A DNA stretch of 64,000 bases from Escherichia coli (GTDB lineage Bacteria > Pseudomonadota > Gammaproteobacteria > Enterobacterales > Enterobacteriaceae): NCBI RefSeq assembly GCF_024223415.1, contig NZ_CP100500.1. One strand, 5' to 3'. Position numbers and translations under genes: made by a program. The notes under the pieces are model-generated. The model was not told the origin of the DNA. It searched no databases and worked only from the letters and a program-made list of their open reading frames with translations. This document shows, piece by piece, positions 43,649-44,703 of this stretch; the first letter of the stretch is position 1; every line of letters begins with the position of its first letter.

Positions 43649-44494
43649 ATGATGATCAATAAACAAAAATTAGTCAACCCTGAAAACCTGCCAGTTATTG
43701 CTGGTGTAGAAATTTCAACTGATATGGTTGGGCGCTTTAATCTGAATGCATTGCATCGAGCCAGCGGTCTTGGCCCCAATAAAGCTCCGACGCAGTGGTT
43801 GCGTACTCAGTCAGCTAAACAACTTATTGAAGAGCTGGAAAAAGAAACTATGCAGAATTGCATAGTTTCACTGGAAGGGCGGAATGGCGGTACTTTTGCG
43901 CACGAACTGCTTGCTGTTGAATATGCAGGATGGATTTCTCCTGCGTTCCGGTTGCAGGTGAACCAGACTTTTATTGACTATCGTACTGGCAAACTTACAG
44001 CGGGCAATAATCAGTTGCCCAATTTTGACGATCCGATCGCTGCTGCTGAAGCGTGGATTGAAGCCAAAAAATCCGAACGCCTTGCTCTCGGGTATGCAGA
44101 GCGTCAGGCTCGCTACATCAGCAAACTCGAAAGCCATCTCGCCGATGGCATCACTCCTGTGCAGTTCTGCAAACAGCTCAACGGTGTAAACACTCGTCAG
44201 ATTAATGCGTTCCTTGAAGAGCGTAACTGGCTGTATGACGACCGTCCGGAGGCTATGTATCCGCGCTGGCGTGTAAAAGCGTATGCACGTGACCAATACC
44301 TGACTGAGCGTTCTGGGCAGGTTGAGCAGGAAAACGGGGAAATGCGCGAGATTTTCAAACCACTCCTGAAGAAAAAAGGTGCCGCCTGGTTATATCGCCA
44401 TTATCTGAACGGCGAACTACCGATGAAGAAAACATGGGATGGGCTGTTTACCCATAACACTGAGCTCGCGAATCTTTTACAGGAGAGCAAATGA
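43649..44494 (+). CDS. KilA-N domain antirepressor-like protein
   Basis: N-terminal KilA-N-like segment (FNLNALHRASGLGPNKAPTQWLRTQSAKQLIEEL). Confidence 0.6.
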   Translation: MMINKQKLVNPENLPVIAGVEISTDMVGRFNLNALHRASGLGPNKAPTQWLRTQSAKQLIEELEKETMQNCIVSLEGRNGGTFAHELLAVEYAGWISPAFRLQVNQTFIDYRTGKLTAGNNQLPNFDDPIAAAEAWIEAKKSERLALGYAERQARYISKLESHLADGITPVQFCKQLNGVNTRQINAFLEERNWLYDDRPEAMYPRWRVKAYARDQYLTERSGQVEQENGEMREIFKPLLKKKGAAWLYRHYLNGELPMKKTWDGLFTHNTELANLLQESK

Positions 44495-44703
44495 TGCAAA
44501 CCAAGACATGTGTAACTGGTGATGTCGATCTGAAACCTTGCCCGTTCTGCGGAAATCCGGAAGTACAACTCATTGAGGTGAAATATTTTCTGGATGGCGA
44601 TGATGGTTATTACGTCGCATGTACTTGCTGTAACGCAAACCAGATTCCTGATTCGAAAGAACGTGCTGTTCATGACTGGAACCAGCGCGAAAACGCGGAT
44701 TGA
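44491..44703 (+). CDS. Lar-family restriction alleviation protein (zinc ribbon)
   Basis: 70 aa with LKPCPFCG...CTCC motif; overlaps neighbours. Confidence 0.55.
   Translation: MMQTKTCVTGDVDLKPCPFCGNPEVQLIEVKYFLDGDDGYYVACTCCNANQIPDSKERAVHDWNQRENAD

Follow-up and report, generated by a model that had tools for sequence, protein, structure and literature searches.

Results

The 64,000-nucleotide stretch of Escherichia coli DNA analysed here (contig NZ_CP100500.1; called the window below) contains a lambdoid prophage integrated at yecE, and two adjoining open reading frames (ORFs) on the plus strand of its early rightward operon are the subject of this study. Gene 1 (43649-44494, 281 aa, ATG start) encodes a protein of the P1 KilA family and gene 2 (44491-44703, 70 aa, ATG start) encodes a Cys4 zinc-ribbon protein of the Lar family. 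The stop codon TGA of gene 1 (44492-44494) overlaps the start codon ATG of gene 2 (44491-44493) in an ATGA overlap, and a Shine-Dalgarno-like sequence is found ahead of both genes; gene 2 is presumably translationally coupled to gene 1. A first-pass annotation of this region, made from the letters of the DNA, had called both ORFs, had assigned them to the KilA-N/antirepressor and Lar families and had placed them between the cro-like gene and the replication module. Our analysis bore this out, for the families by the profile scores given below and for the location by the initiator, DnaC-like and DnaB-like genes which follow downstream.

The two genes are already known as routine RefSeq annotations in a rare prophage type. 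E. coli EC12 contains the same two genes with 98.6% identity, named 'KilA-N domain-containing protein' and 'Lar family restriction alleviation protein' by RefSeq, and an identical 281-aa protein is present in NCBI under the first of these names, seen on 345 contigs. The leader together with the first 51 nt of gene 1 was found in 17 of 5,426 complete E. coli genomes; three of these 17 contain the KilA-N allele, and two of the three the full KilA-N-plus-lar stretch with high identity.

The product of gene 1 consists of a 17-residue leader, a KilA-N domain, a long helix and a KilAC/ANT domain. Pfam places KilA-N at residues 19-113 with 76.5 bits (cut-off 23.8) and ANT/KilAC at residues 168-252 with 25.6 bits, which is marginal at 0.3 bits over the cut-off of 25.3. 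Bro-N was not found in gene 1 by Pfam, the N domain being KilA-N, and among the PHROGs the protein matches PHROG 129 ('transcriptional regulator') with an E value of 1e-33. Its similarity to KilA extends over most of its length, with 46% identity to the P1 record X15638 over residues 4-255 (E 1e-55) and 47% identity to KilA of a P1-type plasmid over about 90% of the protein (E 2e-66). This similarity is concentrated in the N domain, which shows about 87% protein identity to P1-type KilA in a hand count from the alignment, as compared to about 25% in the C domain; at the DNA level the KilA-N segment is 76% identical to kilA of about 490 P1-like plasmids. Substitutions among homologues accumulate at third codon positions (95 versus 49 and 38; 134 versus 50 and 47 in the other part), a pattern expected of a protein-coding gene.

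A fold-based reading of gene 1 was also tried and was dropped. The AlphaFold2 model, calculated from a 30-sequence alignment, had a mean predicted local distance difference test (pLDDT) score of 57.7, with values below 50 in the N domain, and was confident at residues 165-270 only. Foldseek found nothing for this model in the PDB at E <= 0.001, and a sequence search of PDB chains with the proteins of both genes gave no match at E <= 1.

To follow the position of gene 1 relative to the replication genes, 11 loci outside the E. coli type were compared (L085-L090, L093, L094 and L172-L174), which originate from Citrobacter, Salmonella, Enterobacter, Cedecea, Raoultella and two uncultured-virus contigs and contain eight distinct orthologues with 50-74% identity. 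In all 11 loci the kilA orthologue is followed, within 0.9 kb, by homologous genes for the initiator, a DnaC-like protein and DnaB. The junction between kilA and the initiator is a 4-bp overlap in seven loci and a 41-bp gap in one; Lar alone stands between the two genes in two loci and small ORFs in one. In the window, a 1.3-kb insertion that includes lar parts gene 1 from the initiator. The repressors to the left of the kilA orthologues vary and comprise S24 CI types as well as short helix-turn-helix types of 111-173 aa, and at least three repressor architectures occur over the kilA-replication arrangement. We infer from these gene orders, together with the domain exchange and the evidence on CI and LexA boxes given below, that gene 1 belongs to the replication module and not to the immunity module.

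The KilA-N domain itself (43700-44023, plus strand, residues 18-125) is an exchangeable cassette, as revealed by comparison of the window with the corresponding segments of relatives (L002 4300-4632 and L006, L009, L017 and L022). In sibling prophages of E. coli, residues 1-17 are identical, residues 18-125 are occupied by an ORF6N domain, and residues 126-281 show one difference in the allele compared. The exchange is in frame and took place between the conserved 17-codon leader and the conserved KilAC C domain. Other relatives have Rha or unassigned N domains before a related C domain. Despite the swap of the N domain, the CI protein WP_000800136.1 is identical in EC12 and 08-00022.

Gene 2 matches the Pfam family Lar_restr_allev (PF14354) with 43.2 bits versus a cut-off of 28.6, TIGR03655 with 49.5 versus 39.6 and PHROG 599 with an E value of 3e-14. 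Its CPFCG motif, present as KPCPFCGN, is followed by a second C-x2-C and by WNxR, all of them columns that are invariant or nearly so in 57 distinct Lar-family sequences, and substitutions fall mostly at third codon positions (8 versus 2 and 3), as counted from only five near-identical sequences. Judged by these profiles and motifs, gene 2 is a bona fide member of the Lar family. It is 33% identical to RalR of the K-12 Rac prophage and is not a RalR equivalog, reaching 26.1 bits with the equivalog model NF007260, which has a cut-off of 113. Changes at positions 14, 37, 39, 49, 51 and 52 of RalR have been reported to lower its toxicity (PMC4041452). In a hand-mapped alignment five of these six positions differ in gene 2, Asn51 alone being kept, and Gln65 of gene 2 aligns with Lys52 of RalR, a column which in the Lar family is occupied by Arg in 30 sequences, Gln in 15 and Lys in two.

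Lar occurs in the window and in L093 and L172, the remaining synteny loci being without it; it is an optional insertion between kilA and the initiator. Among the 25 IMG/VR loci with a Lar of 49% identity or more, 18 have an upstream gene with a KilAC-type C domain that ends at the start of Lar, the N domain of these genes being KilA-N, ORF6N or unassigned. Lar homologues of lower identity (35-45%) are preceded by unrelated genes, e.g. those for ASCH-domain proteins. In several of the IMG/VR loci L018-L028 the Lar ORF is lengthened upstream of the zinc ribbon, to 131-158 aa, which may represent a genuine N-terminal extension or may stem from the way the ORF was called.

Within the KilA-N coding sequence lies a perfect palindrome with 11-bp arms, GAAACTATGCA-GAAT-TGCATAGTTTC, at positions 43844-43869 (codons 66-74 of gene 1). 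It has a folding energy of -14.9 kcal/mol (z -5.1) and is unique in the window, where only about 11 perfect stems, this one included, reach 9 bp or more. P1-type kilA contains the identical palindrome. Other KilA-N genes, from at least 14 lineages, have palindromes of wholly different sequence at the same protein position, which corresponds to the variable loop bounded by the 'ELE' helix and the conserved GGT[Y/F] motif. Carriers include sequences from Citrobacter, Cedecea, C. koseri, Yersinia, Ralstonia, Myxococcus (Mx4, Mx9), Shigella SfIV, Hamiltonella APSE-5, several E. coli and Salmonella phages and others (beyond the window: L004, L085, L172, L174, L176-L183, L186 and L201-L263). A second scan of IMG/VR with the KilA-N alignment gave only close relatives of SfIV gp44, so that the lineage diversity rests mainly on GenBank phages. 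Internal palindromes were also found in two ORF6N alleles. Rfam and a text search of the literature gave no description of a KilA-N palindrome.

Stems of 7.5 to 11.5 pairs are formed by 22 of 26 distinct variants, as compared to a mean of about 5.5 pairs and never more than 8.5 in control windows of the same genes. Codon shuffles reached the observed score in 0-9 of 200 cases for all of these variants but one, APSE-5 (19/200). In an alignment of 18 variants, 86.7% of the cells pair versus 51% in shuffles (0/500 reach this value), both sides change in all ten pairs, and the covariation score is 0.905 versus 0.25 in shuffles (again 0/500) and 0.07-0.15 with slid partners; the best hairpin of each gene was used to centre this alignment, so that the covariation is inflated, a bias that has to be held against it. 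The comparisons with control windows and codon shuffles are independent of this centring. On these sequence comparisons, the palindrome is a conserved nucleic-acid element that travels with the KilA-N domain; its role is probably that of a binding site or of a hairpin in the mRNA. A role as an intrinsic terminator was considered and ruled out, as the sense strand is without a U-run; a U-run on the antisense strand was dismissed because the upstream A-run exists in some lineages only and is explained by Glu/Lys codons.

A second set of elements surrounds the start of gene 1. Between cro and gene 1 a hairpin with a U-run (43596-43625, minus strand) is predicted to be an intrinsic terminator for leftward transcription; its 11-pair stem is followed by TTCTTTTTTC on the minus strand. 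The fold is more stable on this strand (-21.3 kcal/mol, z -2.4) than on the plus strand (-14.2 kcal/mol, z -0.55), which is without a U-run and where a C.A mismatch takes the place of a G.U pair. In L017, which has a different cro, the hairpin and the A-tract are kept in diverged sequence. In addition, a promoter scan found an antisense sigma-70 promoter-like site (TTGACT, 17 nt, CATCAT; 43649-43677, minus strand) in codons 1-10 of gene 1, within the 51 nt common to the KilA-N and ORF6N alleles, where some alleles have one or two synonymous differences. The predicted antisense RNA of the window would be about 55-60 nt long and would extend over the ribosome-binding site of gene 1.

A minus-strand scan of four further kilA-type lineages found such sites in the first 20 or so codons as well, at 5008-5037 in L085, at 4008-4037 in L172 and L174, and within the region 2276-2487 of L004. 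The first three of these are orthologues and L004 is a P1-type kilA. The site is the sole match in three of the four regions of about 500 nt and one of two in the fourth. In L004 it is followed by a strong leftward terminator about 180 nt away, an arrangement that matches the P1 promoter P53as. The promoter-like sites of the five lineages, together with the leftward terminators upstream in the window and in the P1-type plasmid, suggest that an antisense RNA is made across the start of kilA.

Directly downstream of gene 2 there is a unit which the first-pass annotation had missed. It begins with an isrK-family small RNA (44775-44851, plus strand; Rfam RF01394, 63.6 bits versus a gathering score of 50), which has its own terminator at 44832-44845 and a promoter-like site, TTGATT-17-TACACT, that ends about 6 nt before 44775. 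This is followed by a C4-type antisense RNA (44876-44963, plus strand; RF01695, 84.3 bits versus 45). Rfam gave no family besides isrK, C4 and tRNA between 36000 and 64000. Both RNAs are overlain by an ORF called 'Ash family protein' by RefSeq (44721-45380), the last part of which (45018-45380, plus strand) encodes an AnrP-like Rha domain (Pfam Phage_pRha, residues 122-200). In nine homologous stretches the variable columns by codon position number 16, 17 and 49 from 45018 onward and are flat at 44, 42 and 41 upstream of it; the third-position bias is thus restricted to the part from 45018 onward, and only the Rha-domain part behaves as protein-coding sequence. Stx phages and other lambdoid phages frequently contain this unit (380 phage records).

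In Gifsy-1, IsrK activates the translation of an antirepressor-like protein via a leader ORF, and in S. dysenteriae the leader ORF is fused to anrP (PMC4825925). The window resembles the isrK-orf45-anrP arrangement of Gifsy-1 and the immI unit c4-icd-ant of P1/P7 in that isrK and C4 RNAs precede a small leader ORF and the sequence for an antirepressor-like protein. It differs in the in-frame fusion of this leader to the Rha-domain protein, as in S. dysenteriae, and in the location of the unit, which is in the early right operon and not next to antQ. Of the antirepressor-type candidates in this operon, the isrK/C4/Rha unit is the better supported.

The chromosome around the prophage is E. coli with 98.8% identity to complete genomes, and a tyrosine integrase lies beside the prophage at a truncated DUF72 gene, which is taken to be yecE. 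The repressor gene (42450-43145, minus strand) encodes a CI-type protein with an XRE helix-turn-helix (HTH_3, 33.3 bits) and an S24 self-cleavage domain (Peptidase_S24, 62.4 bits); it matches PHROG 4 with an E value of 5e-54, and its translation contains the catalytic motifs GDSM...KR and a Cys-Gly candidate cleavage site. The rightward operon is opened by a Cro-like gene of the YdaS family (43273-43572, plus strand; YdaS_toxin, 47.2 bits), whose product is 34% identical to YdaS of Rac and matches P22_Cro with 22.7 bits, under the Pfam cut-off. No operator repeats were found in the cI-cro spacer at the settings used. A LexA box was not found between 43146 and 43649 with one mismatch allowed, and the window-wide count of such boxes is at chance level.

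The replication module is led by the initiator (45789-46781, plus strand; PHROG 270, E 8e-79), which is 37-44% identical to the gene directly 3' of the kilA orthologues in Citrobacter and Salmonella, and continues with a DnaC-like gene (46783-47670) and a DnaB-like helicase gene (47667-49067). The linker of the initiator contains the repeat TEITTEITTE (DNA at about 46329-46376), seen in translation only; it implies short direct DNA repeats which could be origin iterons as in lambda O. Further downstream there are a Q-like antiterminator at 50365-50802 and two tRNA-like Rfam matches on the plus strand, at 52686-52758 (67.8 bits) and at 52763-52836 (31.2 bits versus a gathering score of 29).

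In phage PhiR49_2 of ECOR13 (L171 3660-5324), cI and cro are annotated at positions matching the window, but the slot after cro is filled by a Roi gene and an unrelated 282-aa gene. The stretch from cro to the replication genes is thus a hot spot for exchangeable modular DNA-binding proteins. Roi of HK022 belongs to the same broad class of modular phage DNA-binding proteins as gene 1 and differs from it in the N domain.

The first-pass annotation had further stated that no CII-like gene is evident and had suggested that the control of lysogeny differs from lambda. The difference from lambda is clear. No CII- or YdaT-like protein was found between cro and the replication genes by Pfam, PHROGs and NCBIfam on the called genes, and a phmmer search of 324 ORFs with YdaT and lambda CII gave only matches with E > 2, at the sensitivity of single sequences. 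On the other side of cI, the gene at 41756-42304 (minus strand) encodes a helix-turn-helix protein of 182 aa, for which PHROG 4836 ('CII-like regulator') gives an E value of 1.5e-77, so that the statement on CII holds for the rightward operon only. In addition, PHROG 4587 matches the N-terminal part of this protein and the C-terminal part of the product of 41262-41627 (minus strand), and the two genes hence appear to be paralogous. No N-like antiterminator was found among the six leftward ORFs scanned against PHROGs.

Discussion

The explanation that we rank first is that gene 1 encodes a KilA-family accessory protein of the replication module and that gene 2 is an optional Lar insertion behind it; we would assign this a probability of roughly 0.55. 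Gene identity, domain architecture, synteny, the swap of the N-domain cassette, palindrome covariation and promoter-like sites are seen in the sequences; all biochemical activities are inferred. According to this explanation, the two genes would be translationally coupled accessory genes in the early rightward operon of a lambdoid prophage at yecE, and gene 1 would be made only once CI is off the rightward promoter PR. Gene 1 would be a non-essential DNA-binding early protein, probably harmful to the host if made in excess, as is KilA of P1, and would not be a CI-specific antirepressor standing in for CII. A short antisense RNA which starts in the first codons of gene 1 and ends at 43596-43625 would probably restrain its synthesis, as in the kilA-repL operon of P1.

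The closest known system is P1 kilA, which opens the lytic replicon kilA-repL under the control of C1, is dispensable for replication, lethal to the host and of unknown function (PMC9948254). The window and P1 share the architecture of KilA-N plus KilAC, the position as first gene of a repressor-controlled operon leading to replication genes, and a minus-strand promoter-like site in the first codons with a leftward terminator upstream. They differ in the initiator, which in the window is lambda-O/DnaD-like and accompanied by DnaC and DnaB and in P1 is RepL, in what separates kilA from the initiator in the window, namely lar, isrK/C4, the Rha-domain gene and two small ORFs, and in the length of the predicted antisense RNA, about 55-60 nt as compared to roughly 180 nt in P1.

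For gene 2, family membership only would suggest that it most likely relieves type I (EcoKI-type) restriction of unmodified phage DNA. Lar of Rac was reported by King and Murray (1995), from whose work the family name derives, to alleviate restriction and enhance modification. Lambda Ral relieves type IA restriction by enhancing modification (PMC12707154), and a counter-defence role for gene 2 modelled on it is a reasonable guess by analogy. The likeness to Ral is limited to this proposed role, as Ral is unrelated in sequence and is located at another position of the genome; Ral and RalR have been given as 24% identical (PMC4041452). RalR itself was later reported to be a DNase toxin that does not inhibit restriction-modification and is controlled by the small RNA RalA (PMC4041452). 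Gene 2 shares with RalR the TIGR03655/PF14354 family, KPCPFCG, the second CxxC and WNxR. It differs in its location in the rightward operon after kilA, RalR being encoded in the leftward recET operon, and a RalA-type partner was not seen in the window. The counter-defence function put forward in the first-pass annotation rested on the family name and thus goes too far, given what has been reported of the founding member and that gene 2 is not its equivalog.

Several observations weigh against the explanation that we favour. The linkage of gene 1 to the replication genes is synteny and not function, and since the function of P1 KilA is unknown, a statement that gene 1 works like KilA tells little about its mechanism. 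The ANT/KilAC domain, to which gene 1 has its marginal match, is that of true antirepressors such as P22 Ant and P1 Ant1, and PHROG 63 ('anti-repressor Ant') matches gene 1 with an E value of 2e-33. The function of Lar is contested in the literature. Taken alone, the antisense site of the window is weak, with 9 of 12 matches and a weak -10 sequence (CATCAT), and promoter-like matches in the region are not above chance (three found versus 5.4 expected). Finally, the mismatch types in the palindromes are even (five G.T and five A.C), which reveals no strand preference, and a role in RNA is thus inseparable from one in DNA.

Gene orders of the type cI-cro-ant are commonly annotated in temperate phages. 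Together with the ANT/KilAC match just over the Pfam cut-off, the PHROG 63 match and the absence of a CII homologue from the operon, they would fit a true antirepressor which is made from PR, binds and inactivates its own CI or the repressors of co-resident prophages, locks the lytic decision and so replaces CII. We consider this unlikely, although it fares best among the alternatives. P1-type Ant1 is found with an E value of only 0.004 over 94 residues, as compared to 2e-66 for KilA, and gene 1 has KilA-N as its N domain where P22 Ant and P1 Ant1/2, whose C-terminal ANT/KilAC domain is the one matched marginally by gene 1, have Bro-N/AntA. The orthologues stay ahead of the replication module under three or more repressor architectures, and the N domain was swapped while cI remained the same. 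Known antirepressors are typically controlled independently of their target repressor, by an immI-type unit or a LexA box (Gifsy, N15, 186). As no LexA box precedes gene 1, it is without the independent control typical of these proteins; it also lies outside any immI-type unit with own repressors or antisense control and follows cro in the PR operon. Moreover, the S24 self-cleavage domain of CI means that SOS induction of the prophage needs no antirepressor. Synteny, domain exchange and the evidence from CI and LexA boxes together remove the specific support for an antirepressor function of gene 1, and the term, as used in the first-pass annotation, rested on the name of a domain, the nearest characterised relative being P1 KilA. 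The antirepressor-like activity that has been reported belongs to the type of module represented by the neighbouring isrK/C4/Rha unit (PMC4825925).

It is improbable that the two genes form a toxin-type pair, i.e. a KilA-like protein that kills or arrests the host and a RalR-like DNase, silenced by antisense RNA in the lysogen in the manner of a type I toxin-antitoxin or abortive module. The lethality of P1 KilA on expression (PMC9948254), the reports on RalR and RalA, and a predicted antisense promoter and terminator that span the ribosome-binding site of kilA are consistent with such a pair. Against it stand the differences at five of the six RalR toxicity positions, the score of 26 bits with the equivalog model, and the Gln at the place of RalR Lys52, since a position-52 mutant was inactive in vitro, described as purified K52Q in the text and listed as K52G in the plasmid table of the same study (PMC4041452). 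In addition, Rfam matched nothing in the region apart from isrK, C4 and tRNA, and the location in a repressed lytic operon already silences both genes.

The least probable alternative is an obligate two-protein unit of the KilAC protein and Lar, for instance a zinc ribbon docked on KilAC and targeted by the exchangeable N domain, which would agree with the ATGA overlap and with the 18 of 25 IMG/VR loci described above but is contradicted by eight of the 11 loci with full-length orthologues, which run without Lar straight or via small ORFs into the initiator, by phiP27, where, as inferred from match coordinates, a KilAC gene is apparently followed directly by the Ash/isrK unit, and by the unrelated upstream genes of the distant Lar homologues.

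Going beyond the KilA-family accessory protein as such, we put forward, as a tentative and rather speculative idea, that KilA-N genes, and perhaps the ORF6N genes found in their stead, are self-contained cassettes of a domain plus a site, a picture we regard as possible at best. The palindromes, with arms of 8-13 bp in the coding sequence for a variable surface loop, stand at one and the same position in phages of enterobacteria, Ralstonia, Myxococcus and Hamiltonella, with the symmetry kept and the sequence left free. The palindrome could be a site bound by the protein itself, which would set up an autoregulatory roadblock in the kilA-replication operon, or could be a hairpin in the mRNA, and together with a conserved antisense promoter it would throttle an early protein toxic to the host. 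Roi of HK022 reportedly binds a site in its own gene (Clerget and Boccard, 1996), which is a lead only.

Conclusion

As first stated, the finding of a KilA-N gene and a Lar gene in this operon matters little, both genes being routine annotations. It does call for caution with the names 'antirepressor', 'Lar restriction alleviation' and 'Ash family protein', all of which imply more about function than the data warrant. Interest somewhat beyond routine annotation attaches to four unexpected features: the palindrome, the predicted antisense promoter, the exchangeable domain and the RNAs under the 'Ash' ORF. The palindrome might reveal what the KilA-N domain binds, and, if true, palindrome and 5' antisense promoter together would provide a first handle on the control of this widespread and functionally obscure domain.

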